In this document: one piece after another, positions 2,481-64,000 of the stretch | How the letters are laid out: each line of letters begins with the position of its first letter | Position numbering within the stretch: the stretch's first letter is position 1 | From: Escherichia coli | GTDB lineage: Bacteria > Pseudomonadota > Gammaproteobacteria > Enterobacterales > Enterobacteriaceae | Assembly: GCF_003334255.1 (NCBI RefSeq) | Contig: NZ_QOWU01000015.1 | DNA: 64,000 nt | Direction: 5' to 3' (one strand) | The notes under the pieces: generated by a model | What the model saw: the letters and a program-made list of their open reading frames with translations, nothing else | What the model was told of the DNA's origin: nothing | Database searches by the model: none | Translations under genes and position numbers: made by a program

Positions 2481-3221
2481 ATGCTGCAAAATATTCGAAT
2501 TGTGCTGGTGGAGACGTCACACACCGGCAATATGGGTTCTGTTGCCCGTGCCATGAAAACAATGGGATTAACCAATCTGTGGCTGGTTAATCCACTGGTG
2601 AAACCCGACTCCCAGGCGATTGCCCTGGCAGCAGGGGCCAGCGATGTGATTGGTAATGCTCACATCGTCGATACGCTCGACGAAGCGTTAGCCGGTTGTA
2701 GCCTGGTGGTGGGCACCAGCGCACGTTCCCGCACGCTGCCATGGCCGATGCTCGACCCGCGCGAATGCGGCCTGAAAAGCGTCGCTGAAGCGGCAAATAC
2801 CCCGGTGGCGCTGGTGTTTGGTCGCGAGCGCGTCGGCTTGACCAATGAAGAGTTGCAGAAATGCCATTATCATGTCGCGATTGCGGCTAACCCGGAATAC
2901 AGCTCGCTGAACCTGGCGATGGCGGTTCAGGTTATTGCCTATGAAGTGCGCATGGCCTGGCTGGCAACTCAGGAAAACGGCGAGCAGGTCGAGCATGAAG
3001 AGACGCCGTATCCGCTGGTCGATGATCTGGAGCGTTTTTATGGTCATCTGGAACAAACGCTGCTGGCAACCGGTTTTATCCGTGAAAACCATCCGGGGCA
3101 GGTGATGAATAAATTGCGCCGTCTGTTTACCCGTGCGCGCCCGGAAAGCCAGGAGTTGAATATCCTGCGCGGGATTCTGGCTTCTATTGAGCAGCAGAAT
3201 AAAGGTAACAAGGCCGAATAA
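2481..3221 (+). CDS. trmJ: TrmJ tRNA (Cm32/Um32) 2'-O-methyltransferase
   Basis: 246-aa SpoU-family ORF immediately upstream of iscR. Confidence 0.95.
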
Positions 3222-3403
<182 letters not shown>

Positions 3404-3471
3404 CAACAGGTACAAACGCCACGATAAAAAAATGGCACTGAAGGTTAAATACCCGACTAAATCAGTCAAGT

Positions 3472-3545
3472 AAATAGTTGACCAATTTACTCGGAAATGT
3501 CAGACTTGACCCTGCTATGCAATACCCCCACTTTTACAATAAAAA
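3472..3545 (+). promoter_or_regulatory. iscR promoter region with putative IscR type-1 operator
   Basis: aaatagttgaccaatttactcggaaatgtcag resembles the IscR type-1 site; TTGACC hexamers at 3478-3483 and 3506-3511; lies 40-110 nt upstream of iscR. Exact site boundaries are not determinable by eye. Confidence 0.5.
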
Positions 3546-3581
3546 ACCCCGGGCAGGGGCGAGTTTGAGGTGAAGTAAGAC

Positions 3582-4070
3582 ATGAGACTGACATCTAAAG
3601 GGCGCTATGCCGTGACCGCAATGCTTGACGTTGCGCTCAACTCTGAAGCGGGCCCGGTACCGTTGGCTGATATTTCCGAACGTCAGGGAATTTCCCTTTC
3701 TTATCTGGAACAACTGTTTTCCCGTCTGCGTAAAAATGGTCTGGTTTCCAGCGTACGTGGACCAGGCGGTGGTTATCTGTTAGGCAAAGATGCCAGCAGC
3801 ATCGCCGTTGGCGAAGTAATTAGCGCCGTTGACGAATCTGTAGATGCCACCCGTTGTCAGGGTAAAGGCGGCTGCCAGGGCGGCGATAAATGCCTGACCC
3901 ACGCGCTGTGGCGTGATTTGAGCGACCGTCTCACCGGTTTTCTCAACAACATTACTTTAGGCGAACTGGTTAATAACCAGGAAGTGCTGGATGTGTCTGG
4001 TCGTCAGCATACTCACGACGCGCCACGCACCCGCACACAAGACGCGATCGACGTTAAGTTACGCGCTTAA
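3582..4070 (+). CDS. iscR: IscR, Rrf2-family Fe-S cluster regulator
   Basis: 162-aa ORF with N-terminal HTH and the cluster-ligand region [13 protein letters not shown]. Confidence 0.97.
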
Positions 4071-36774: not shown

Positions 36775-39018
36775 ATGAAACTGAATGCAACTTATATAAA
36801 AATACGTGATAAATGGTGGGGGCTTCCGCTGTTCCTGCCTTCTTTAATCTTGCCCATTTTCGCCCACATTAATACTTTCGCGCATATTTCTTCCGGTGAG
36901 GTTTTTCTCTTTTATCTGCCTCTGGCACTGATGATCAGCATGATGATGTTTTTCAGCTGGGCGGCATTGCCAGGGATCGCCTTAGGGATTTTTGTCCGCA
37001 AATATGCAGAGCTGGGTTTTTACGAAACGCTATCATTAACGGCTAATTTTATTATCATTATCATTCTCTGTTGGGGCGGTTACAGGGTCTTTACTCCCCG
37101 GCGTAACAACGTTTCACATGGTGATACCCGTTTAATTTCCCAGCGTATATTCTGGCAGATTGTGTTTCCTGCAACGCTGTTTCTGATACTTTTCCAGTTT
37201 GCTGCATTTGTAGGATTACTGGCGAGCAGAGAAAATCTGGTCGGTGTCATGCCTTTTAACCTCGGGACTTTAATCAATTATCAGGCCTTACTGGTGGGTA
37301 ATCTGATCGGTGTCCCGCTGTGCTACTTCATCATTCGGGTAGTGCGAAATCCATTTTATTTACGTAGCTATTATTCGCAATTAAAACAGCAGGTTGATGC
37401 CAAAGTCACCAAAAAAGAGTTCGCGCTCTGGCTACTGGCATTAGGTGCTTTATTGTTGCTGTTATGCATGCCGTTAAATGAAAAAAGCACAATTTTTAGC
37501 ACCAATTATACCTTGTCATTATTGCTGCCCCTGATGATGTGGGGAGCGATGCGCTATGGTTATAAGCTGATTTCGCTGCTCTGGGCGGTCGTGTTGATGA
37601 TCAGCATCCACAGCTATCAAAATTACATTCCCATTTATCCTGGCTATACCACGCAGCTGACCATAACCTCCTCCAGTTATCTGGTATTCTCTTTTATTGT
37701 CAATTATATGGCTGTACTGGCAACCCGTCAGAGAGCGGTAGTCAGACGCATTCAGCGGCTTGCGTATGTGGACCCGGTGGTTCATCTGCCAAATGTTCGC
37801 GCCCTGAATCGCGCGTTGCGTGATGCCCCCTGGTCTGCGCTTTGTTATTTACGCATCCCTGGCATGGAAATGCTGGTTAAGAACTATGGCATCATGCTGC
37901 GGATTCAATACAAGCAAAAACTTTCTCACTGGCTGTCACCCTTGCTGGAACCGGGTGAAGATGTTTATCAGCTTTCGGGTAACGATCTCGCGCTGCGACT
38001 GAATACAGAATCGCACCAGGAGCGCATTACCGCACTGGATAGCCATCTCAAGCAATTTCGTTTCTTTTGGGATGGCATGCCGATGCAACCGCAGATTGGC
38101 GTCAGTTACTGCTATGTGCGCTCGCCAGTGAATCATATCTACCTGCTGCTGGGAGAGCTAAATACGGTCGCCGAACTTTCCATCGTGACCAACGCCCCGG
38201 AAAATATGCAGCGTCGCGGGGCAATGTATTTGCAACGCGAATTGAAAGATAAAGTCGCGATGATGAATCGACTACAGCAGGCGCTGGAACACAACCATTT
38301 TTTCCTGATGGCCCAGCCGATTACCGGTATGCGTGGTGATGTTTACCATGAAATTCTTCTGCGCATGAAAGGTGAGAATGATGAACTGATCAGCCCCGAT
38401 AGCTTCTTGCCGGTCGCACACGAATTTGGTTTATCGTCGAGTATCGACATGTGGGTCATTGAGCATACGCTGCAATTTATGGCTGAAAACAGAGCGAAGA
38501 TGCCCGCTCACCGTTTTGCTATTAATCTGTCTCCAACCTCGGTATGTCAGGCTCGTTTTCCTGTTGAAGTCAGTCAGTTGCTGGCTAAATATCAGATTGA
38601 AGCGTGGCAACTTATTTTTGAAGTCACCGAAAGTAATGCTCTGACCAATGTTAAGCAGGCGCAAATCACCTTGCAGCATCTTCAGGAATTAGGCTGCCAG
38701 ATTGCGATTGATGATTTCGGCACCGGCTACGCCAGCTATGCGCGGCTTAAAAATGTGAATGCCGATCTGCTTAAAATTGACGGCAGTTTTATCCGCAATA
38801 TTGTGTCAAATAGTCTGGATTATCAGATAGTGGCATCGATTTGCCACCTGGCGCGAATGAAGAAAATGCTGGTAGTGGCAGAGTACGTTGAAAACGAAGA
38901 GATCCGCGAGGCGGTGCTCTCTTTGGGGATCGATTATATGCAGGGTTATCTTATTGGTAAGCCGCAGCCGTTAATTGATACGCTGAATGAAATCGAACCC
39001 ATTCGCGAAAGTGCCTGA
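36775..39018 (+). CDS. pdeF: PdeF (YfgF), MASE1 / degenerate GGDEF / EAL c-di-GMP phosphodiesterase
   Basis: 747-aa ORF: N-terminal multi-TM MASE1-like region, degenerate GGDEF (SGNDL), EAL-type domain with the signature E-I-L (HEILLRM). Confidence 0.9.
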   Translation: MKLNATYIKIRDKWWGLPLFLPSLILPIFAHINTFAHISSGEVFLFYLPLALMISMMMFFSWAALPGIALGIFVRKYAELGFYETLSLTANFIIIIILCWGGYRVFTPRRNNVSHGDTRLISQRIFWQIVFPATLFLILFQFAAFVGLLASRENLVGVMPFNLGTLINYQALLVGNLIGVPLCYFIIRVVRNPFYLRSYYSQLKQQVDAKVTKKEFALWLLALGALLLLLCMPLNEKSTIFSTNYTLSLLLPLMMWGAMRYGYKLISLLWAVVLMISIHSYQNYIPIYPGYTTQLTITSSSYLVFSFIVNYMAVLATRQRAVVRRIQRLAYVDPVVHLPNVRALNRALRDAPWSALCYLRIPGMEMLVKNYGIMLRIQYKQKLSHWLSPLLEPGEDVYQLSGNDLALRLNTESHQERITALDSHLKQFRFFWDGMPMQPQIGVSYCYVRSPVNHIYLLLGELNTVAELSIVTNAPENMQRRGAMYLQRELKDKVAMMNRLQQALEHNHFFLMAQPITGMRGDVYHEILLRMKGENDELISPDSFLPVAHEFGLSSSIDMWVIEHTLQFMAENRAKMPAHRFAINLSPTSVCQARFPVEVSQLLAKYQIEAWQLIFEVTESNALTNVKQAQITLQHLQELGCQIAIDDFGTGYASYARLKNVNADLLKIDGSFIRNIVSNSLDYQIVASICHLARMKKMLVVAEYVENEEIREAVLSLGIDYMQGYLIGKPQPLIDTLNEIEPIRESA

Positions 39019-39023
39019 ATAAT

Positions 39024-39050
39024 GCGGGCCGACATTTCTCGTCGGCCCGC
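39024..39050. terminator. Bidirectional stem-loop between pdeF and ppx
   Basis: gcgggccgac-atttctc-gtcggcccgc, a perfect 10-bp stem. Confidence 0.6.
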
Positions 39051-39056
39051 AAAGTA

Positions 39057-42669
<3,613 letters not shown>

Positions 42670-50929: not shown

Positions 50930-51779
50930 TCAGGATTCCTGACGTAAATAAATAGCCCGATAACAAATACTCACCAGCACTGCACCGCCGATAATATTAC
51001 CCAGCATCACCGGGAGCAGATTGGCGGTAATAAAATGGCTGACCGTCAGAGCCGGAAAATTGTCTGCGCTACTGTGCGCCAGTTGCCAGAAGGGGGGGAG
51101 GGGCGAAATGGCGAATGGCAATGGCGAACGGAATCACAAACAAATTGGCGATACAGTGCTCAAAGCCACTGGCGACAAACAGGGTGATGGGCAAAATCAT
51201 GGCGACGATTTTGTCGCATAACGAACGCCCGCAATAACTCATCCACAGCGCCAGGCAAACCATCAGATTGCACATAATGCCGAGGCTGACAGATTCAGTA
51301 AATGTATGATGCATTTTGCCCTCGGCGCAGTGTAAAACCGCGACTCCCCACATCGCGTTTTCACTCATCACCAGCCCGGAAAACCAGATTAACAAACTGA
51401 AACAGGCAATACCTGCCAGATTACCGCAGGCCACCAGAAGTGCGTTAATCAGCCAAGTTCGCCAACTAATAACGCCCCGACTTTTTGCCATCACCGTCAT
51501 TACCGACGAGGTGAACAGGCTGGTGCCGCAAACCGCCAGCAAAATAAAGCCGAGTGTAAAGCAAAGGCCGCCCACCAGATGGGTTAATGCCTGTGAAGAC
51601 GGGGCATCGGCGATAACGGAAAGGTAAAAAGTAAATCCAATCGTCATAAACACGCCAGCGGACATCGCCATTAAAAAGACCGATACTTTGCTGCGGGCAA
51701 TTTTATGGGCAGCAATCCGTTCAGCGATTGCCGCTTTTCTGGCGCTCAACTGCAAGTCGAAAGAGAGTTTGTTTCTCAT
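50930..51779 (-). pseudogene. focB: focB (formate channel FocB) interrupted by a +1 frameshift
   Basis: Two overlapping minus-strand ORFs (51069-51779 and 50930-51121) together cover an FNT-family protein. They are joined by removing one G from the G7 run at 51092-51098. The span is 850 nt, where 849 would give an intact 282-aa protein. Confidence 0.75.
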
Positions 51780-51800: not shown

Positions 51801-53816
51801 TTACAACACCTCGCGAACCGAGATCCCCAGACGCTGCATTCGTGACAGCAGCGTGGTGCGCTTCATCCCTAATCGTGTCGCCGCGCCACGGGGCCCGGCA
51901 ACAATGCCATTGGTTTCTCGCAATACCTGAACAATGCGCTGACGTTCTTCTTCGTCATTCTCTGGCGTCGTCGGGTGCAGCAACTGCGCCATTGAACTGC
52001 GAAGCGCTGAATCTTCATTTAGCGTCGGCAGTAAACGGCTTTGTCGGACATTAAGATGTAAATTCAGACTGTTACCGCGAGTCAGCAGTACCGCTCGCTC
52101 AATCACGTTTTCCAGCTCGCGCACGTTGCCCGGCCAGTCCCACGACATCAACTGGCGTAGCGCCTCGGTTGGGATGGCGTCAATTGCGCGATTCATATGG
52201 CGCGCCATTTTTTGCGTGAAATGTTTTGCTAAAAGAGGGATATCTTCCGGACGGTCGCGCAGCGGCGGCAATTCCAGTGGGAAGACATTCAGGCGATAAA
52301 AGAGATCGCTGCGAAACTGGCGATCTTCAACCATTTGCCACAAATCACGGTTGGTGGCGGCAATGACTCTGACATTCACCGGGATCGTTCTACTCCCGCC
52401 GAGACACTCAATCTCCCGCTCCTGCAATACGCGCAGCAGTTTAGGCTGAAGTTCTAACGGCAGATCGCCAATTTCATCGAGAAACAACGTGCCGCCATCG
52501 GCAATTTCAAAACGACCACGATGGGTATTAATCGCACCAGTAAACGCCCCTTTGTCATGACCGAATAACTCACTTTCCAGAAGACTGGCGGGGATGGCAG
52601 CGCAGTTGATTTTGACCAGCGGCTTGTCGTGTCGCGGGCTAAGTTGATGGATCGCTCTGGCGATCACCTCTTTGCCGGTTCCGGTTTCACCACAAATCAA
52701 CACCGTACTGTCGCTCTTCGCCACAATATCTACCTGCTGGAGCAGGTCTTCCATTGCCTGGCTTTGATAGATAATGTCACCGACGCCCAGATTTGAAAGG
52801 AGCTGCTCGCTAAGCTGGTGGTTTTCTTGCTGCAAACTTTCCTGCAAATCGGTCATGCTGCGCCAGGCATCGGCATTGCCAACGGCAATAGCGATGCGAT
52901 CGGCTATGTGTTGTAGTAGCTGGCAGTTTTCCTCACTAAAGAGAGTGGAAGAGGTATGCGCCAGCAACAATGCACCCGGTGTATGGTTGCCAAAGGTAAG
53001 CGGTATCAGGAGCGCAGATTCGCAGCCGTTAGATGCAAGTAAGAGTAATAACGGGTCGCGTTGCCAGAGAAACAGATCATCTGCACGATGCGTCAAGGTC
53101 GGTTGTCGGGTTTGTAGCGTTTGTGTCAGCAATACACTGTCGCCAGGCATATTGCGTGGCAGACACGCACAATGTGAGGCAGAAAGATCGCTGCACCACA
53201 GGCTGAACTTCTCGTTCTTTCGATGATCGCCCAGTACCATACTGACTGAAGCCAGACCGAAAAAATGATGGATCTCACGGGCGACGTCAGCGATCAGATC
53301 GTCGAGATCAAGATGTGACAGCACTGCATTAGTAATATCAACCAGTACCCGATGATGATCGCGATCTTTCTCCAGCAAACGCAGCGCCACCTGTTGTTCT
53401 TCATCATTGAGCCATGATTGCAGAACCGGGGTGATTATGCGTGTCAGCCAGTTAAACAGTGTGCAATCCTGGGGAGTAAAACGACTGCCGTGGGTGCGAA
53501 TAAAGCGTAGCTCCGCCATTCCACTACTGCCGAGAAGGACGGCGTGACGCGAATAATCGACCATCTCGCCCTGATACTCTGTTGTTGCCGTCACATCGCT
53601 GCCATCATCATGGTAGCGGTAATAGAAGTTGCTTTTGAGAACATGCAGTTCAATAAGTTGTACCGGGCTGAACGGCGGCGGCAGCGGGATGAAGGCGCGT
53701 AATAAAGACGCCTTGCCGTGTTTCTGTGCTAACCGCTCCGCGAGCATTCCGTTTACCGCTTCAATTGTTATTCCTTGTGGCGGGGCAAACATCGCCTCGT
53801 CTGACATAGCCATCAA
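51801..53816 (-). CDS. hyfR: HyfR, sigma54-dependent activator of the hyf operon
   Basis: 671-aa ORF: GAF-like N-terminus, AAA+ sigma54-interaction domain ([14 protein letters not shown]), C-terminal HTH. Intact. Confidence 0.93.
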
Positions 53817-53842: not shown

Positions 53843-54256
53843 TCACGCAATTTTTCTGGCCATCAGATAGATAGCCGGTTCCAGCACAATTTCATCCAAC
53901 AGATGAATGAATTGAATGCTACGCGCTTGCCACACAGACGTCGCGTCATCTGCCAGTGGCGCGAATGCCCGGGTCAACAGGGCGGTGTGGCTGGCGTCAA
54001 TAACAATCTCACCAAAAGTCATCACCCCCAGCATCTTACGTCGGGCTTGCTCCTCTTCGACCAGTGCAAGCCAATCTTCGTATTCCGTCAGTGGGCAGCG
54101 GAAGGCGACATTCAGACAATCAATCACGCCAACGTGATGACCGATAGCCAGCGAGTAATACATTACCTGAGAGCTGTGTTCCGGCATCTCGTCGCTACTG
54201 GCGACAAACTTTTTTCGCAGCGTCCAGAAAACAATTTCCCCGCACTCTTCAGTCAT
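53843..54256 (-). CDS. hyfJ: HyfJ (HycH-like hydrogenase maturation factor)
   Basis: 137 aa from ATG 54254-54256 ([11 protein letters not shown]). Confidence 0.85.
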
Positions 54257-55006
54257 GTAACCCCCTGAGTACGCGAAAGAGTTGCTGAACGATACTATTG
54301 AGACGTGGATCGTCGGCATCGCGCAACCAGGTGTTAACCCGATTTCCTGTAGGATCGTCGCTTAAATGGCGCAGGAGCCGATCGCAAATTTCTCGCCCCT
54401 GACGATAGCCCGCCAGCCGCCGCGCTTCTCGCTCAATGGCGATACGCTGTGATGGCGGGATCTGTGGCCACAACGGTTGCATAGTCACCCCGGTGGGATC
54501 GCGATAATCCACAGCGTGAATCTTCTGTTGCAGCAAACCGAGCGCCACGGCGAAACCGTGAATGGTGGCGGCCGGTGTTGGCGGGCAGCCGGGGATCCAA
54601 ACATCAATGGGGACAATGGTGTCGCTGCCGCCCCAGACGCTGTAGAGATCGTGGAAAATACCGCCGCCGACACCGCACGCGCCGTAGGAAACACAGATTT
54701 ATGATCGGGGGCAGACTCATACGCCCGAAGTGCAGGCATACGCATCGCCCGGGTGACTGCGCCAGTAAATAACAAAATATCGGCGTGACGCGGTGATGAA
54801 ACAACCTTAATGCCAAAACGTTCTGCGTCGAATACGGGGGTGATGGCAGCAAAAATTTCGATTTCACAGGCGTTGCAGCCACCGCAATCGACGCGATAAA
54901 CGTAGGCTGAGCGACGGATATCCTGTAGCAAATGCCGCTTCATATTTTGCGTTTGCTCGTCCAGCGTGATGGGCTGGCTGACATATTGCGTAAGCACTGG
55001 ACTCAT
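54249..55006 (-). pseudogene. hyfI: hyfI (NuoB-like hydrogenase-4 small subunit) interrupted by a -1 frameshift
   Basis: N-terminal ORF 54485-55006 (with [10 protein letters not shown]) leaves the conserved frame after ...YESAPDHK. The conserved continuation ([13 protein letters not shown]...IPGCPP...) is in the other frame and runs to the stop at 54249. A T3 run at 54698-54700 is one base short. The span is 758 nt, where 759 would give 252 aa. Confidence 0.75.
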
Positions 55007-55542
55007 AGCTGCTCCTTAGCCACCAGCGGTACATCTGTATCGTCGTTGAGCAGCGTCGCGCGTTGTTTGCACTCCGGGCAGACGCTCGCTTGCGCCCATA
55101 ACATTTCGCGGTTTTGTGGCGCATTTTGTTGCTGTGCCAACAATTCAGCAGCCAGTGCGACGGTTTTTTGCGGGGCAAACGGGCGTTCGCAACGGCTGCA
55201 ACGTTGTAGATGGAACGTCGCGCGGGTATAGAGATCGGCTTTATTGGTGACGGTCAGTTCAAAGTTATTGGTAAGCTGGATGGCTCTGGTCGGGCACACT
55301 TCTTCACAACGTCCGCAGTAAATACAACGCCCCAGATAGAGCTGCCAGGTGCGCGAATTTTGCTGGTCGTCGGTCTGGATAGTCAGCGCATTTGCCGGAC
55401 AAGCACAGGCGCCGCAGGCAATACATTGGCTGGGCATCAGGTCCGGTTTCCCGCGAAAGCCTGGGCTGACCTCCAGTGGCGCGAAGGGATATTTCACCGT
55501 CGCGGTTCCGGCGCGCATAATAGTTTTCAGTAACTTCAGCAT
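55003..55542 (-). CDS. hyfH: HyfH, 2x[4Fe-4S] ferredoxin-type subunit
   Basis: 179-aa ORF with [10 protein letters not shown] and [12 protein letters not shown] motifs. Confidence 0.93.
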
Positions 55543-55551
55543 CTTCTGTCC

Positions 55552-57219
55552 TTACTTCAGCGGCGAACGGTTACGATCAATGCCGTAGCGTTCGATCTCT
55601 TTATACGGCACGGTTTTTGACTGGCGCTTGCGCACATCTACCAGCGTCACACGGTCGGTACAGGAGTAGCAGGGATCAAGGCTACCGATAATCAGCGGTG
55701 CGTCAGAAACGGTATTGCCGCGCAGCATGTAACGCAACACCGGCCAGTTGGCGTAGGTGGCGGCACGGCAGCGCCAGCGGAACAATTTTTGGTTATCACC
55801 GAGCATGCTCCAGTGCACGTCTTCACCGCGTGGCGCTTCAACAAAGCCCAGCGCGAATGCGTGAGGTTTATAGCTAAAGCCTTCGGTCAGCAGTGGGGTA
55901 TCCGGCATGTTGTCGAGGGCAAATTCCAGCATTGCCAGCGAATCAAACGTCTCTTTGACACGGACCATCACGCGGGAGAAAACATCGCCGCCGGTAAAGG
56001 TAAACAGTGTTTTTGGAATATTGCCGTAGTCGGCGTAGGGGTGATCAAAGCGCAAATCACGGGCGATTTGTCGGTCGAGAATGCCAATGCCCTGAGTGCG
56101 TTGTTCCATATTCGGCGTAGCAAGCAGCATCTCTACCAGCTCCGACACGTCGGCGCGCATCTCGCGCACCAGTTTCAGCGTTTGCAGACGTTGCTCTTTG
56201 AGAATATCGCGGCGAACACCACCAATCAGATTCAGACCGTAGGTTTTACGCGACCCGATCAGCAATTCCGCCATCGTCATCGACTTTTCCCGCACGCGGA
56301 AAAATTGCATAAAGCCGGTATCAAAACCAACGAAATGGCAGGAGAGGCCAAGGTTAAGCAAATGACTGTGTAGCCGTTCGACTTCCAGCAGAATCGAGCG
56401 AATAGTATGTGCTCGTTGCGGCACCTCAATCCCCAGTGCATTTTCAACCGAATTGGTATAGGCCACACTGTGGGCAAAACCGCAAATCCCACACACGCGG
56501 TCCGATAAGAAGGTCACTTCGTTGTAGCCCATCCGCGTTTCTGCCAGTTTCTCCATGCCGCGATGGACATAAAACAGGCGGTAATCAGCATCGACAATTT
56601 GCTCGCCATCCACAAACAAGCGGAAGTGACCCGGTTCATCGGAGGTGATATGCAGCGGGCCGACAGGGATCACCCGCGCATCGCTGTTGCCCTCATTGAT
56701 AAACGGATACGTTTCGGAATCAGTCGTCGGTTCAGGGCGCAGTCGATAATCCATCGCATCTTTGCGCAGCGGATGCATATCTTCCGGCCAGTCATCGGGC
56801 AACACCAGGCGACGCTGATCCGGCAGGCCAACCGGAATCAGCCCGTACATATCGCGAATTTCTCGCTCGCCCCAGACCGCGGCAGGGACGCGCGGTGTGA
56901 CTGACGGAAACTCCCGACTGTCGGCATCGACCAGCGCCTTCACCACAATCCAGCATTTTTCGGCCCCTTCCATTGAAAGGGCATAATAAACCGCGTAATG
57001 ACCGTTAAGTGTCCGCTCGTCGTTGCCAAACAGGACCGGAAGCCAGCCATCATGTTGATAATAAAGATACTGTACAACGTCAGGCAGCAGATTGATTTTC
57101 ACCGTAATGGTGACCTGTTCAGGCGTTTGTCGCTCTTCATCCAGCACCGCGCCGGGGAACTGCGTTTTCAGGGCGGCGAGAATCGCTTCGCCACGATTTG
57201 ACGATGAATTAACGTTCAC
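55552..57219 (-). CDS. hyfG: HyfG, hydrogenase-4 [NiFe] large subunit
   Basis: 555 aa from GTG 57217-57219; N-terminal [10 protein letters not shown] and C-terminal DPCYSCTDR nickel-binding motifs. Confidence 0.95.
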
Positions 57220-58789
57220 TGTGTTTCTCCGAAACAGATGCGGTGCCTGAAGGCAAAAAATCATGCCAGGTGCTACGTTGTGCAGGCAGATCGTGCGTCC
57301 CTGAGAGGACTATAGTGGAAGCGCCCGCCAGGATCCTGATGACAGGTTGTGGAATATGCGTTCCCATCGCCAGCATCATGACCAGCAGAATCACCATTGG
57401 CGAGGTGGTCAACCAGCCGAGATCACCCCGGTTAACGGCCTGCGGCGGTTTCGCCATTAACACCCGCGCAGCCATCCGTACCAGGCCCGCCAGCACCAGC
57501 GTTAACAGCAATAACAGCAGGACGATAATCAGCAGGTGATTACGTGCCAGTCCGGCGGTAATGGTCATAAATTCGCTAAGAAAAATGTTGAAGGGCGGCA
57601 TCCCTGCCAGCGCCAGCGCACCGCCGCCAAACAGCACGGCGGTAAATGGCATGATTTTGAGCATCCCACAGACGACGTTGAGATCGCGCGTGCCGTACTT
57701 GAGCAGTACATTGCCGGAACCGCAGAACAGCAGCGTTTTTGCCAGACTGTGGTTTAAGATGTGCAGCAGCGCGGCAAAAATTCCCAGCGGCCCGCCAATG
57801 CCTAGCGCCACCGCGACCAGTCCCATGTTCTCCACGCTGGAGTACGCCAGCAGACGCTTAATGTCCCGCTGTACCAGAATGAAAAATGCCGCCACGGCAA
57901 CCGACAACATGCCGAAGATGAGCAACAACCGGTTGGGGAAATCGCTGCCGATGGCCTGGCAAATAATGATGTAATAGCGAATCAGCACCAACAGCGCGCA
58001 GTTCAGCAATACGGCGGAGAGTAGGGCGCTGACCGGACTCGGCGCTTCACTGTGAGCATCCGGCAGCCAGGCGTGCATGGGAAATAGCCCGGTTTTGGTA
58101 CCAAAGCCAATTAGCACAAACACAAAGGCCAACAGCATTAATGTTGGATCAAGCAAGGACGATTGCTTAAGAACCTCGCTCCAGAATATCGCCATTTCTG
58201 CCTGCGGCATAACGCTGGCGGCGTTGGCGTATACCAGCACGGTACCGAACAGACCAAAAGCGACACCAACAGTACAAATAATGATGTACTTCCATGCAGC
58301 TTCCAGCGATGAACGCTGACCGTAAATGCCTACCAGAAACGCCGAGCTTAAGGTGGTGGCTTCGATCGCCGCCCACATCACAATCAGGTTATTGCTGGTA
58401 ACAACCAGCAGCATGGTGAACAAAAACAGATGGAAGAAACCGTAGTAATCGCACAGCGTAACGGGTGAAAGCTCGCCGTGCTCCACTTCATGACGCATGT
58501 AGCCAATCGAGTAAACACCGGTGAGAAAGCCAATCACACCAAGAATGGCGAGGAACAAACCGCCCAGACCATCAATATGAAGCCACAGTCCCGCAGCGAA
58601 TATTTCTCCTGCATCAGCGGCAGTTTGGACCACCCAGAGTGCCAGAATCAGCAGCAGTGTGATCCCTAAGCTATGTAATACGGTCACCGTACAAGTCGCA
58701 GAGAGCCTCCGTTTCCGGCAGGCAAAACAGAGCAGCGAAAAAAGCAGCGGCGTGAGCAGGAGTAAAGCGAACATCACAGAATAACTCAT
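57209..58789 (-). CDS. hyfF: HyfF, NuoN/L-like antiporter-type membrane subunit
   Basis: 526-aa multi-TM ORF. Confidence 0.93.
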
Positions 58790-58793
58790 CTCA

Positions 58794-59444
58794 TTATCCC
58801 TTCAGCGCGGTCAAGTCGTTCACGTCCAGCGTGCCGTGGGTACGCCATATTTTTCTTGCCAGTAACACCATCACAATGACGGCGAAGATGGCGTCGGTAG
58901 CGATACCTATTTCCACCAGTTCCGGTGCTCGCCAGGCAAGAAGCGCCAGCACCAGATGGGAGCCGTTTTCCATCAGGCAGTAACCAAAAATTTGCCGCAG
59001 GATATTGCGCTGGCTGACAATGCACAGCAGGCCAAGCAGAAAATGACCTAACGCTACCGCCAGCGCCGGTTTCAGCCCGGTAGCCATCGGTAGCTTCACG
59101 GGCTGAACGACAAATGCGCAAAGCAGGACAATTAACGCCGCGAGCAGTGCCATCATTGCCGGACCGAATAACGCTTTTTCCGGGATGTTCTGGGGAATAT
59201 TTCGTGCAGCGTAAGTCATGATTAACGGTACCAGCAGCACTTTGGTGATAAAGGCGCTGGCGGACCAGATCAGCAGTTGCTCTGCGGCGAACAGGCACGA
59301 GAGGGTGGCGAAAATAGACACCAGCACCAGTGACTGGCAGGCGTAAAATCCGCATGACAGGCGATAGCTTTTGACGCTAATCACAAACAGCGATGTCAGC
59401 ATCATCAGTCCCGCCAGATTATTTACGATCATAGAACCGGTCAT
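58794..59444 (-). CDS. hyfE: HyfE membrane subunit
   Basis: 216-aa multi-TM ORF. Confidence 0.9.
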
Positions 59445-59455
59445 TCATCATCTCC

Positions 59456-60895
59456 TTACTGCAACCAGGTCGCGGCGATTACGCTGGAAATCAGCGACAT
59501 CACAATCAGTACAATCAACACCAGGCGCATTGATCCTGGCAGCGGTGCGGCATCGGCGACGGCCTCGCTCGGTTTGCCAGGCACAACGCGACCAAACCAG
59601 CGAATAAACCAGGCGAAACTGGCGACCGATTCAATCATCAGCAGAATCAGGGCGGGCAGCAGGATCCAGTACTCCACTGACAACGCAAAACCGGCAACAA
59701 ACAGCGGGAATTTACTGAAGAAGCCGTTGAACGGCGGTACGCCGGTAATCGCCAGCGCTACCACGCAGAAACCCACGCCTGGCAACGGCAGGGTGTGCAA
59801 TACGCCACGCAGACGCGGCAACAAGCGCGTGCCGCAGCTGTAACTCAGCGCACCTGCTACAAGGAAAAACAGGCTTTTAGCGAACGCGTGGTTGACGATG
59901 TAGGCGATGCTACCCTCCAGCGCCAGCCGCGAGCCGAAGATGGAGAGCGACAAGCCGAAGAACATCCAGCCAAGTTGAGTGATGGTCGACCAGGCCAGCA
60001 ACCGCTTCATATCCTGCTGTGGCAAATACATCAGGAAGCCATAAAGAATGGTGACCAGCGCCATGACCATGCCAACGCCGCCAATCACATGCGGGATATT
60101 GCCGCCGTCGATAATGGCGCGGGCAAAAATGTAAACGCCCACTTTCACCATCGATGCGGCGTGGAGATAAGCGCTGATCGGTGTTGGCGCTTCCATTGCA
60201 TCCGGTAGCCACGCTTGCATCGGTAGCTGGGCCGATTTCCCCCACGCGGCAAACAGGATGCCGCCATAAACCAGATAACGTGCGTCGCCGTGTAACTCGC
60301 TCATCGCGCTAAGCGCAAACGTTCCGGTCTGCAAAAACAGCGTGGCGGCGGCAAGATACAACCCCAACGAACCGATATGGGTGATAAGCAACGCTTTTAG
60401 TGCTGAACGCTGCGCTTTATCGCTCTGATAATAACTGATCAACGCCCAGGAGCAGCCGCCCGTAATTTCAAAAAACAACAACTGACCGAGCAGCGTCGAG
60501 GAGAGTACCAGTCCCGCCATCGCGCCGATAAACACCAGCAAAAATGCGTAATAACGATTCGTGCCGTTATGCGGGTGTTCGCGATTTTTATCCGTCAGAT
60601 AACCCGTGGAGTAGATCGTGACCAGCAAACCGAGAAACACCACCACAAACAGAATCAGCGTACTCACGCGATCAATGACCAGGCCAAACAATGCCACATC
60701 CCCCACGTTGACCAACGTCAACGTGACGGCAACTTTATCGGCCTGATAAAACGCGGAGATCAGCGACAACATGCACAGCGTGGTCAGCGCGGCGAACAAA
60801 ACCCCCCATTCGGCGGCCCGACGTTGTGGCGAAAACGAAACGACCAGTGCGCCGATAAAAGGCAGCATTAACGTCGTCAGAGCAAGATTTTCCAT
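59456..60895 (-). CDS. hyfD: HyfD, NuoM/L-like antiporter-type membrane subunit
   Basis: 479-aa multi-TM ORF. Confidence 0.93.
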   Translation of the reverse strand: MENLALTTLMLPFIGALVVSFSPQRRAAEWGVLFAALTTLCMLSLISAFYQADKVAVTLTLVNVGDVALFGLVIDRVSTLILFVVVFLGLLVTIYSTGYLTDKNREHPHNGTNRYYAFLLVFIGAMAGLVLSSTLLGQLLFFEITGGCSWALISYYQSDKAQRSALKALLITHIGSLGLYLAAATLFLQTGTFALSAMSELHGDARYLVYGGILFAAWGKSAQLPMQAWLPDAMEAPTPISAYLHAASMVKVGVYIFARAIIDGGNIPHVIGGVGMVMALVTILYGFLMYLPQQDMKRLLAWSTITQLGWMFFGLSLSIFGSRLALEGSIAYIVNHAFAKSLFFLVAGALSYSCGTRLLPRLRGVLHTLPLPGVGFCVVALAITGVPPFNGFFSKFPLFVAGFALSVEYWILLPALILLMIESVASFAWFIRWFGRVVPGKPSEAVADAAPLPGSMRLVLIVLIVMSLISSVIAATWLQ

Positions 60896-60911
60896 ATTCC
60901 GTCAGTGCTCC

Positions 60912-61859
60912 TTACAGACCGGTTAACCAGAAGACCCATGCAAGCGCAGCAAGGCTGAAGCCAAGCCAGGTCACATGGTGAATGAGTAAAAAACGCCCGC
61001 GTGCCAGCGTGTTTTCTGCGATTGAGGCCAGTACAAAAATCAGCAAAACCTTGAGCAGCGTAACGACAAGTGAAGTCAGCAGGCAGGCGAGAGAAAGTTC
61101 TTGCGCGCGCCCAAAGGGCAGAAACAGGGCCACAAACAGTGCTGCCATCACGACCTGTTTCAGCCCCAGCCCCCATTTCGCCAGCGCCAGCCCGGCACCG
61201 GAATATTCTGTCAGCGGGCCTTCCTGTAATTCCTGTTCTGCTTCAGCAACATCAAAGGGAATTTTTCCCATCTCAATGAAGCAGGCAAAACCACAGGCCA
61301 GTAACGCCAGTACGGTGGTTAGCGGCGAGTTCCAGCCCATCGCCAGCGTATTGCTGATCATCTCGATATGCGTGGAATCCGCTATCAGTGCCAATACCAG
61401 CAGTGAGAGAATAAGCATGGGTTCGACCAGAATGCCGAGCGTCAACTCGCGACTGGCACCGACTCCCGCAAACGGACTTCCGGTATCCAGCCCGGAAAGA
61501 GCAAAGAAAAAACGAAACAGGGCAAGAAGATAGATAAGGGTGATCAGATCGCCGCCGCCCGCAAAAGGGGAAACGGTAATAAATAGTGGTAGGGCCATCG
61601 CCAGCACCAGCATGCTGCTGATTAATACCCAGGGCATCAGGCGGAACATCAGACCTGAAGATGTCGGCGCAACTTCCTGGCGTTTAAACAGTTTGTGGAT
61701 ATCGCGATAATCCTGCCAGATCCCCGGTCCGCGGCGGGAGTGCATTCGCGCGCGTATCTGCCGGGAAATACCCGTAAAAAGTGGGGTTAGCATCAGCAGA
61801 ATCACGGCCTGTGCTAACGCAAAAATGACCAGATATCCGTCGCAAAGAGTTTGTCTCAT
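60912..61859 (-). CDS. hyfC: HyfC, NuoH-like membrane subunit
   Basis: 315 aa from ATG 61857-61859 (MRQTLCDGY). Confidence 0.93.
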   Translation of the reverse strand: MRQTLCDGYLVIFALAQAVILLMLTPLFTGISRQIRARMHSRRGPGIWQDYRDIHKLFKRQEVAPTSSGLMFRLMPWVLISSMLVLAMALPLFITVSPFAGGGDLITLIYLLALFRFFFALSGLDTGSPFAGVGASRELTLGILVEPMLILSLLVLALIADSTHIEMISNTLAMGWNSPLTTVLALLACGFACFIEMGKIPFDVAEAEQELQEGPLTEYSGAGLALAKWGLGLKQVVMAALFVALFLPFGRAQELSLACLLTSLVVTLLKVLLIFVLASIAENTLARGRFLLIHHVTWLGFSLAALAWVFWLTGL

Positions 61860-61869
61860 GGTGATTTCC

Positions 61870-63887
61870 TTAGACGGCAATAGCGATTAGCAGCACAACC
61901 AGTGCGGCGACCACATACAGGCAATAGAGACGAAAGTCGCCGCTTTGCAGATGCTGTATTTCTTTGGCCAGCCGTTGGGTGGCGCTCACGATGGGGCGGA
62001 TCACCCGCTCATCCCAGAAGGGTTCTGTGCTCTGAGCCCTGGCGGTGACGTGCGCAAGACCTTTATTTAGCCTCAGCGTAGGGTCGAGCTGTTGTCGTAG
62101 ACGAAATAGCGCAGAGAAGACCACACGCAGCGGCTGCATCACGCCATTGCCTGACGGGGCCATCGCATTTTCCCAGCCGTAGCCGCATGCCCAGGCATCT
62201 CCTGTGCGACGAAACGCTGCGCGGCGCGAACGACACCACAGCCAGTAAAGGCCAGGCAGCAAAGGCATCGCCAGTAGTAACAGCAACAGTAATGAGGAGG
62301 TTACCTGTGTATGAAACGTGCCGGGTACAAGAGCTATTCCGCTGGCGACAGTGACGGGAGGGGTATTGGTAAACGCATGGGCAATATGCATTATCTTCGG
62401 TGCCAGCCAACTGGCACTAAGCGCAATTAATACGCAGAGTGCCGCGAGCAGTAGCATGGCGACGATCATCGTATTTGGCACTTCCTGTGCCTCTTCAGCG
62501 TGTGTACTGCGCGGCGCACCACAGAAAGTAATACCGTACATTTTGACGAAGCACATTACTGCCAGCCCACCAGTGACTGCCAGCATTACCATAGCAATAG
62601 GACCCGCAAGTTGTAGCGCTACGGCTTCCACACGACTTAGTGAGAACAGCGACTGCCAGGTGTACCATTCGCTGATAAAACCATTCAGCGGAGGAATGGC
62701 TGATATCGCGAGGCAACCAATCAGGCATGCTGCGGCTGTCCACGGCATCCGTTTCGCCAGTGCCCCCATTTTTTCCATGTCGTGGGTATGCAAACGCGAA
62801 ATAATCGCGCCCGCGCCGAGAAATAGCAGCCCTTTGAACAGCGCATGGTTGAGCAGATGAAACAGTGCGCCGAGCAGTCCAACCACGGTGAGCAGCGGGT
62901 CGTGCAGTGACAGACCGTCCATCGCCACACCGACTGCCAGCAAAATAATGCCGACGTTTTCGACGGTACTCCAGGCCAGCAGCCGTTTGATATCCTGTTC
63001 CGCCAGCGCATATAGCACGCCCAGGAGCGCGGAGATTGCGCCGATCGCCATCACCAGAATGCCCCACCACAGAGGCAAACCCGTTTGCGCCAGCAGATCC
63101 ATCGCTACTTTCAGGATGCCGAAAATACCGATTTTGACCATTACGCCAGACATCAACGCCGAAGCGTGCGATGGTGCGGCAGGGTGAGCGCGCGGCAACC
63201 AGCTGTGCAACGGTATCATCCCGGCTTTCGCGCCAAAACCGAAAAAGGCCAGCAGAAACACCGCCGACGCCAGCCCCGGAGAAAGTGAAAGCGTGCGAAA
63301 CTGGCAAAATCGAGGCTGCCGCTTTCGCGCCCCATCAGCAAGAAGGCGATCATAATCAGCACCGATCCGGCGTGGGCGATAAAAAAGTAGAGCATGCCAG
63401 CGTTGATCGACGTTTTATCCTGCCTGGCAATGACCAGAAACCAGGAAGACAGCGACATCATTTCAAACAGCACGATGAACCAAAAAGCGTTGTCCATCAC
63501 CAGCAGGGCAACCATCGATGCGATGAAAAGATTCATAAAGAAGCCCATCGCCGCCGCGCCTTTGCCCTCGTATTCGCGCATATAAGTCAATGAATAGAGC
63601 GAACAAACCACCACCAGCAAGGAGATAACCAGCACCATAAATGCCGAGAGGCTATCCATTCGCAGGGTTAAATCGGCAAAGTCAAAAGGGGTGGCAAAAT
63701 GGGCGACTAAAGTTACACCAGCATGTAATTGCGTAATTCCGCTGATGATGCCAATCACGCCGCCCACCAGCGATGTGATGCCGGAAAGCTTAATAGCCAG
63801 TCTGTCCAGACCGAGTAAAAACAGCGAAGCCAGACTGGCAAACAGATAGAGGATCAGCGACCAGGTTAATAATTGCAGGGCATCCAT
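61870..63887 (-). pseudogene. hyfB: hyfB (NuoL-like hydrogenase-4 membrane subunit) interrupted by a -1 frameshift
   Basis: N-terminal ORF (ATG 63885-63887, MDALQLLTW...) and C-terminal ORF (stop at 61870) are in different frames and overlap near 63260-63300. Total span is 2018 nt, where 2019 would give 672 aa. The most likely site is gcgaaa at 63296-63300 (one base missing). Confidence 0.75.
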
Positions 63888-64000
63888 TAGCGTTGCTCCT
63901 GAGTGAGGGAAAGGGGATCCTCCCATAAGCGCTAACTTAAGGGTTGTGGTATTACGCCTGATATGATTTAACGTGCCGATGAATTACTCTCACGATAACT

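Follow-up and report, generated by a model that had tools for sequence, protein, structure and literature searches.

A one-base expansion of a C homopolymer truncates focB in an already inactivated hyf operon of Escherichia coli

The closest described relatives of the gene considered here encode FocA and its paralogue FocB of Escherichia coli K-12. Residue H209 is central to the FocA pore (PMC12559229). Removal of the C-terminal six residues of FocA (through R280) blocks formate uptake, and removal of one further residue (L279 of the Y-L-R motif) results in loss of both homopentamer integrity and transport (PMC5572259). FocB is the less understood of the two and has received little direct functional characterization (PMC12396580), although altered proton and potassium fluxes have been reported for K-12 focB mutants (PMC12396580; PMC11841067). 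The K-12 protein (b2492, NP_416987.1) is encoded by the last gene of hyfABCDEFGHIJR-focB. The hyf operon of E. coli has been called 'silent' with Hyd-4 activity that is very low or absent, and its own maturation protease is missing (PMC7654741).

The window, the 64-kb stretch of E. coli DNA analyzed here, contains focB at the same locus and in the same synteny as K-12, the last gene of the hyf operon, preceded immediately by hyfB-hyfR in the same orientation and followed by the convergent yfgO (perM). The minus strand reads CATTTCGCCCCTCCCCCCCTTCTGG at the focB tract, with the wider context CGCCATTTCGCCCCTCCCCCCCTTCTGGCAACTGG, the seven Cs corresponding to the G7 run on the plus strand (51092-51098) at which the first-pass annotation had placed a +1 frameshift truncating the gene. 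The sequence read-out bears out the run and its position, and alignment with MG1655 focB revealed 10 substitutions and a single extra C, located in the run (C7 versus C6). Comparison with MG1655 and other strains, the check suggested with that annotation, identified C6 in MG1655 and BL21 and C7 in 177 of 5,426 complete E. coli genomes. The reading in which IRHFAPPP continues as LLATGAQ and a stop was likewise upheld, the ATG open reading frame 51779..51069 encoding 236 residues with the C-terminal end IRHFAPPPLLATGAQ (APPPLLATGAQ before the stop). The open reading frame in the next frame, 51121..50930, carries PPFWQLAHSSADNFPALTV followed by YLRQES, the longer stretch being PPFWQLAHSSADNFPALTVSHFITANLLPVMLGNIIGGAVLVSICYRAIYLRQES. 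Deletion of one C in silico restored this downstream frame and yielded a 282-aa protein, as had been proposed, that is equal in length to K-12 FocB and differs from it by three amino acids (A46T, M274I and P282S). The window gene is focB, broken by one extra C in a C run. Features of the locus, together with two focB lesions from other strains, are listed in the table.

Table. Features of the focB locus and hyf operon in the window, and focB lesions in other strains.
Feature	Position (window unless stated)	Strand	Remarks
focB pseudogene	50930..51779	-	850 bp versus 849 bp in MG1655; 98.7% nucleotide identity, one gap
C7 homopolymer, +1 insertion site	51092..51098	-	C6 in MG1655 and BL21
Premature TAG stop in shifted frame	51069..51071	-	8 codons past tract; ends 236-aa product
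focB remainder, out of frame	50930..51091	-	FWQLAHSS...GNIIGG...YLRQES; aligned to FocA residues ~231-281 (last loop, last helix, Y-L-R motif)
hyfR, sigma-54 activator gene, intact	51801..53813	-	By comparison with MG1655
hyfI pseudogene	54249..55006	-	-1 frameshift (A4 to A3) at about 54701; 'frameshifted' in G1/2 too
hyfH	55003..55542	-	In-frame 6-bp deletion at about 55413; 12 residues to 10, CxxCxxCxxxCP ferredoxin-type motif shortened
hyfG, hyfF, hyfE, hyfD, hyfC	55552..61859	-	Full length, indel-free versus MG1655
hyfB pseudogene	61870..63887	-	-1 frameshift at 63298 (CAGTTTCCGC to CAGTTTCGC); common to 13/13 related strains
IS421 (IS4-family, IS186-like) end in hyfA 3' end	63924..64000	.	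Runs off window; 36 nt upstream of hyfB start
IAI1 focB -1 frameshift	L005 1500-1579		Exact match in 644 complete genomes
ISEc20 (IS110-family) inside focB C-tract, ESDR8	L007 about 2540-4000		Splits gene at same spot

The repaired protein belongs to the FNT family, as the first-pass annotation had maintained. Residues 6-280 aligned end to end with FocA (PDB 3KCU) residues 6-281 (E=3.4e-86), and the LFTS, FEHxIAN and C-terminal YLR motifs are present in both proteins. FocB scores 321 bits against the FocA equivalog cut-off of 440 bits. With the NCBIfam FocB model (NF007261, cut-off 499) the repaired protein scored 646.8 bits over positions 1-282 of 282, whereas the 236-aa product scored 522.3 bits over positions 1-230 only; the corresponding scores with the fnt model (TIGR00790, cut-off 232.3) were 289 and 240.8 bits. 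The frameshift follows APPP, which aligned with FocA ASPE (~residues 227-230). Retained upstream of this point are the pore Thr (LFTS, TM2) and the pore His (FEHCIAN; F-E-H-x-I-A-N, TM5), both aligned with their FocA counterparts. Lost from the 236-aa product is everything aligned to FocA residues 231-281, which takes in the final loop, the final transmembrane helix (with GNIIGG) and the Y-L-R motif. Since the missing tail aligns with the last helix and Y-L-R motif that FocA needs, FocB without its 53 C-terminal residues is almost certainly inactive and, by analogy, would be expected neither to form a stable pentamer nor to move formate. Judged from its sequence, focB of the window is a member of the FNT family by descent with a predicted product that is incomplete, i.e. 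a pseudogene.

The focB lesion is one of several in an already dead operon, a context that the first-pass annotation had not recognized. Frameshifts were present in 3 of the 11 genes of the operon and in none of 41 genes outside it (one-sided Fisher p about 0.0075). The hyfB frameshift was found in all 13 related strains examined, in those with focB C6 and C7 alike. Since this lesion is common to C6 and C7 strains, it is older than the focB change, and the operon was already dead when focB was broken. The focB lesion is part of an operon-wide decay, an ordinary pseudogene that is already known.

A single position in 13 kb separates the window from strain G1/2, a faecal isolate from a healthy individual in Germany. 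G1/2 has the hyfB and hyfI frameshifts and IS421 in common with the window, and its focB (H4P46_RS06260), annotated as 'frameshifted', lies within a 901-bp region that is 100% identical including C7. The focB gene of ETEC H10407 (ETEC_RS14130) also lies in a 901-bp region identical to that of the window, C7 included. Unlike the window, the operon of H10407 has a 216-bp deletion in hyfD, an internal stop in hyfF and a 48-bp insertion in hyfG, and the two sequences differ at 5-26 positions per kb (more at indels) from hyfB to the 5' part of hyfR, the last ~2 kb being identical. Operons of the H10407 type constitute a second, more decayed background. Only the window-type background (window, G1/2, JP538 and MB06232) carries the hyfI -1 frameshift. 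Strain-specific lesions were also observed: E308 has IS1 between hyfC and hyfD, L73 has lost a large hyfC-hyfE segment, and H10407 has an internal stop in hyfI, with a frameshift in a G run of hyfD found in C10, PCP06171 and 214-4. The 6-bp deletion in hyfH lies within a short tandem repeat and removes Cys-Ala; the gene is called intact by PGAP. At its edge the window departs from MG1655 hyfA at the IS junction, where an 'IS4-like element IS421 family transposase' is annotated in G1/2, G6/7 and G8, all of which match at 100%. The insertion site is GGGG...CCCC. Many genomes with hyfB haplotypes 99.4-100% identical to that of the window, O121 and porcine ETEC strains among them, have this junction annotated too. 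This recurrence suggests an insertion hotspot or an old insertion. Identity to MG1655 shifts abruptly at the ppx/ppk boundary (window about 39000-40600). The trmJ-ppx genes are mostly 99.8-100% identical and suhB and the isc genes 99.1-99.8%, while identity from ppk to hyfB is only 98-99.4% except for hda, upp, hyfE and hyfG. On these values the step looks like the boundary of a recombination mosaic.

Taken with the operon, the extra C very probably reflects ordinary homopolymer instability under relaxed selection in a decaying hyf operon and not a regulatory switch. Replication slippage would have lengthened a C6 run by one C, so that translation would leave its frame after Pro-229 and end 8 codons later. 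The predicted 236-aa product would retain the first five helices with the pore Thr and His but end short of the final loop, the final helix and the Y-L-R motif and, by homology with FocA, would be capable neither of stable pentamer formation nor of formate transport. The mutation would have been tolerated because the operon was already non-functional in the lineage, through the older common hyfB frameshift, and because hyf of E. coli is poorly expressed even when intact. The tract would have remained mutable, with C6 and C7 coexisting among close relatives. The slipped-strand origin suggested by the first-pass annotation is judged sound, given the four tract lengths (C5 to C8) present on a single local haplotype and the status of 7-8-bp G.C runs as hotspots (PMC8510543). 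Against this account, the ion-flux phenotypes of K-12 focB mutants (PMC12396580) indicate that an intact focB is not necessarily dispensable.

The focB region was present in about 4,299 of 5,426 complete E. coli genomes, with no locus match in about 1,127 (about 21%); population counts are of exact matches and hence lower bounds. On the local haplotype of the window the tract was C5 in about 8-11 genomes, C6 in 807, C7 in 177 and C8 in 2. C7 on the K-12 local haplotype gave no full-length exact match among the 5,426 complete genomes, and that test therefore gives no sign of recurrence on other haplotypes. Losses of focB have occurred independently elsewhere. In the IAI1-type allele (B1-like; O104:H4 and others), for which an exact 79-mer was found in 644 genomes, an interrupted tract (GCCCCACGCCCC / CCCCACGCCCC) is accompanied by a -1 shift, caused by the loss of a T (TTCTGG to TTCGG) five bases downstream of the tract. 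This allele resembles that of the window in that it is broken at almost the same codon, has lost the last helix and is annotated as 'frameshifted', and differs in being an independent event with an interrupted tract and a deletion outside of it. Its interpretation as a C5 slippage variant was ruled out, the ~646 genomes that are one base shorter being accounted for by the interrupted tract and the separate T deletion. Further losses comprise the insertion of ISEc20 in ESDR8, the genomes without the locus, and Shigella flexneri, in which focB is listed as a pseudogene (PMC6156198). Among complete genomes with focB, at least about 19% have a frameshift in a stretch of about 12 bp, and these frameshifts arose two or more times independently.

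Such repetition could indicate that loss of focB is positively selected, an extra formate channel being costly and lineages inactivating it again and again. The independent inactivations within about 12 bp (C7 in 177 genomes, the -1 allele of the IAI1 type in 644, C5/C8 and ISEc20), the pseudogene in S. flexneri and the proportion of frameshifted genomes are what this explanation would predict. However, each C7-lineage strain examined also has lesions elsewhere in the hyf genes, and the common hyfB lesion is older, which fits neutral decay, and the clustering is accounted for by the hotspot nature of the run. Thus neutral decay suffices, and selection for the loss is considered improbable.

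Indel rates in E. coli climb exponentially with run length, with 7-8-bp G.C runs as hotspots (PMC8510543), for which reason recurrent slippage at the tract is plausible; the identification of the focB tract as a mutational hotspot is supported. C7/G7 runs are depleted in the 64-kb window, with 1 observed versus a mean of 4.19 in dinucleotide-preserving shuffles, as are positions matching C6 (6 versus 18.8). The sole G/C run of at least 7 in the window resides in the focB pseudogene. Ten genomes were found with the exact 901-bp haplotype of the window and C6, hence with an intact focB (E308, ATCC 43886, ETEC1720, ETEC1722, ETEC1739, MB06232, MB06233, PCP06171, C10 and A10). A neighbour-joining tree was constructed from about 29 kb around focB, with the tract masked, for six C6 strains (ATCC 43886, E308, ETEC1720, MB06232, C10 and PCP06171) and C7 strains. 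C6 and C7 strains were nearest neighbours in four places of the 27-kb tree. The window or JP538 (C7) differed from MB06232 (C6) by 2-3 SNPs in about 27 kb, P276M (C7) from E308 (C6) by 2 SNPs, 214-4 (C7) from C10 or PCP06171 (C6) by 15-19 SNPs, and H10407 (C7) from ATCC 43886 (C6) by 6 SNPs in about 16 kb. Window-type and H10407-type operons diverge by about 1-2% from hyfB to the 5' part of hyfR and are identical in the last ~2 kb. The interspersed C6 and C7 strains, together with the identical last ~2 kb, therefore imply at least four changes of the tract, short recombination patches, or assembly errors.

In the compared region, the five A/T runs of 7-8 nt were invariant except in 214-4, an assembly that looks error-prone. 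General under-calling of homopolymers in the C6 assemblies was thus not seen at the five A/T runs, although doubt concerning G/C runs stays, the focB tract being the only G/C run of at least 7 in the region. One porcine-ETEC project supplies 3 of the 10 same-haplotype C6 genomes and 5 of the 8 C5 genomes among the matches listed, a clustering that suggests homopolymer under-calling by one base. Long-read miscalls of homopolymers may inflate the apparent C6/C7 differences. In 214-4 an A8 run and a G5 run (alignment columns 19918 and 26900) have each lost one base that all its relatives retain, and its pdeF is annotated as 'frameshifted; internal stop'. The two deletions are probably assembly errors, a caution against trusting every homopolymer call in a complete genome.

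Homopolymer contingency loci are known in Haemophilus, Neisseria and Campylobacter. The focB tract is similar to these loci in that a coding G/C homopolymer shifts the frame according to its length and several lengths occur in the population. It is dissimilar in having a tract of 6-7 nt, in a metabolic gene with dead partners, that is unconserved across lineages. The possibility that the C-tract is a reversible contingency switch for FocB, ON with C6 and OFF with C7 or C5, and is maintained by selection draws on the occurrence of C5, C6, C7 and C8 on one local haplotype, on C6/C7 differences, in four separate clades, between strains separated by as few as 2-19 SNPs in about 27 kb (6 in about 16 kb for H10407 and ATCC 43886), on the constancy of nearby A/T runs of 7-8 nt (one error-prone assembly excepted), and on the presence of the repaired protein on 255 contigs and of the truncated protein on at least 1000. 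The four pairs of C6/C7 neighbours exceed the switching expected from one old mutation and leave some room for a switch-like role. Nevertheless, a run of 6-7 nt is short for a contingency locus, and the rest of the operon is inactivated in these strains such that FocB would be toggled without an obvious partner function. Across focB-bearing lineages the tract was not found conserved as a repeat, the IAI1-type lineage (644 genomes) having an interrupted tract and being broken by a deletion that lies outside of it. Moreover, C7 was never found on the K-12 local haplotype, and the clustering of C5/C6 genomes in one sequencing project hints at under-calling. With a tract that is short and unconserved in the B1-type lineage, and with partner genes already inactivated in these strains, regulatory phase variation at focB is unsupported, and a switch maintained by selection is regarded as quite unlikely. 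Equally doubtful is a genuine FocB switch specific to phylogroup-A-like E. coli and independent of hydrogenase 4, with the interspersed C6 strains as true revertants; if true, these strains would again possess an intact formate channel although the rest of their operon is dead.

Consecutive proline codons are pause and +1 slip sites. The C7 allele might accordingly be recoded, with full-length functional FocB produced when tRNA-Pro slips by +1 on CCC-C or when slippage occurs during transcription of the run. The in-frame CCU CCC CCC CUU would allow P-site tRNA-Pro to re-pair in the +1 frame, and 8 codons separate the tract from the stop, within which a slip would rescue the frame. Inspection of the sequence upstream of the tract revealed no Shine-Dalgarno-like stimulator, however, and the A-site codon that follows the run is CUU and not a stop. 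Furthermore, the majority of focB alleles have C6 and are in frame without a shift, C7 is one base from an existing intact haplotype and hence a recent mutation rather than a conserved arrangement, and PGAP annotates a pseudogene and not a programmed frameshift. Neither a conserved shifted arrangement nor a stimulator, as in prfB-type programmed +1 frameshifting, was found in the window allele or in the homologues compared. Recoding is therefore considered very improbable.

Least credible is that the extra C is a homopolymer miscall or assembly artefact in the window, for although homopolymers are the classic place for indel errors in long-read and pyrosequencing data, and the related 214-4 assembly has likely single-base deletions of this kind, the 177 complete genomes with the same allele come from many laboratories, at least 1000 contigs encode the exact truncated protein, and 41 genes elsewhere in the window are free of indels, which together render a miscall untenable. 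The 177 genomes are those with an exact match to an 81-mer centred on the C7 tract, a length at which 99% identity can be reached by a perfect full-length match only. A 901-bp query spanning focB was matched with 100% identity including C7 in more than 40 genomes among the matches listed, ETEC H10407 among them. The contigs encoding the exact 236-aa protein were found in a 15-billion-protein collection covering NCBI, ENA and Logan assemblies; the exact repaired protein was found on 255 contigs from several sources, and both tract states are therefore real in nature. The 41 genes are all of those annotated in MG1655 from suhB to yfgO (window 1559-50892, ~49 kb), each full length and without gaps in the window. 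The label 'formate transporter FocB, frameshifted' is given by PGAP to the gene in H10407, G1/2, 214-4, L73, RM14721, P276M and JP538. These results establish the C7 allele of focB as widespread, inherited and annotated in RefSeq as 'frameshifted', and not peculiar to the window.

The finding has little significance beyond annotation, the mild interest that remains being the apparent repeated change between C6 and C7 among near-identical genomes. Where complete genomes seem to differ by homopolymer 'switching', long-read miscalls can be a confounder. The locus provides an example of decay in which the longest G/C homopolymer is the weak point of a poorly expressed operon. In metabolic models and in considerations of hydrogen and formate physiology, strains of this lineage, among them the ETEC reference strain H10407 and commensals like G1/2, should be treated as focB- and Hyd-4-negative.
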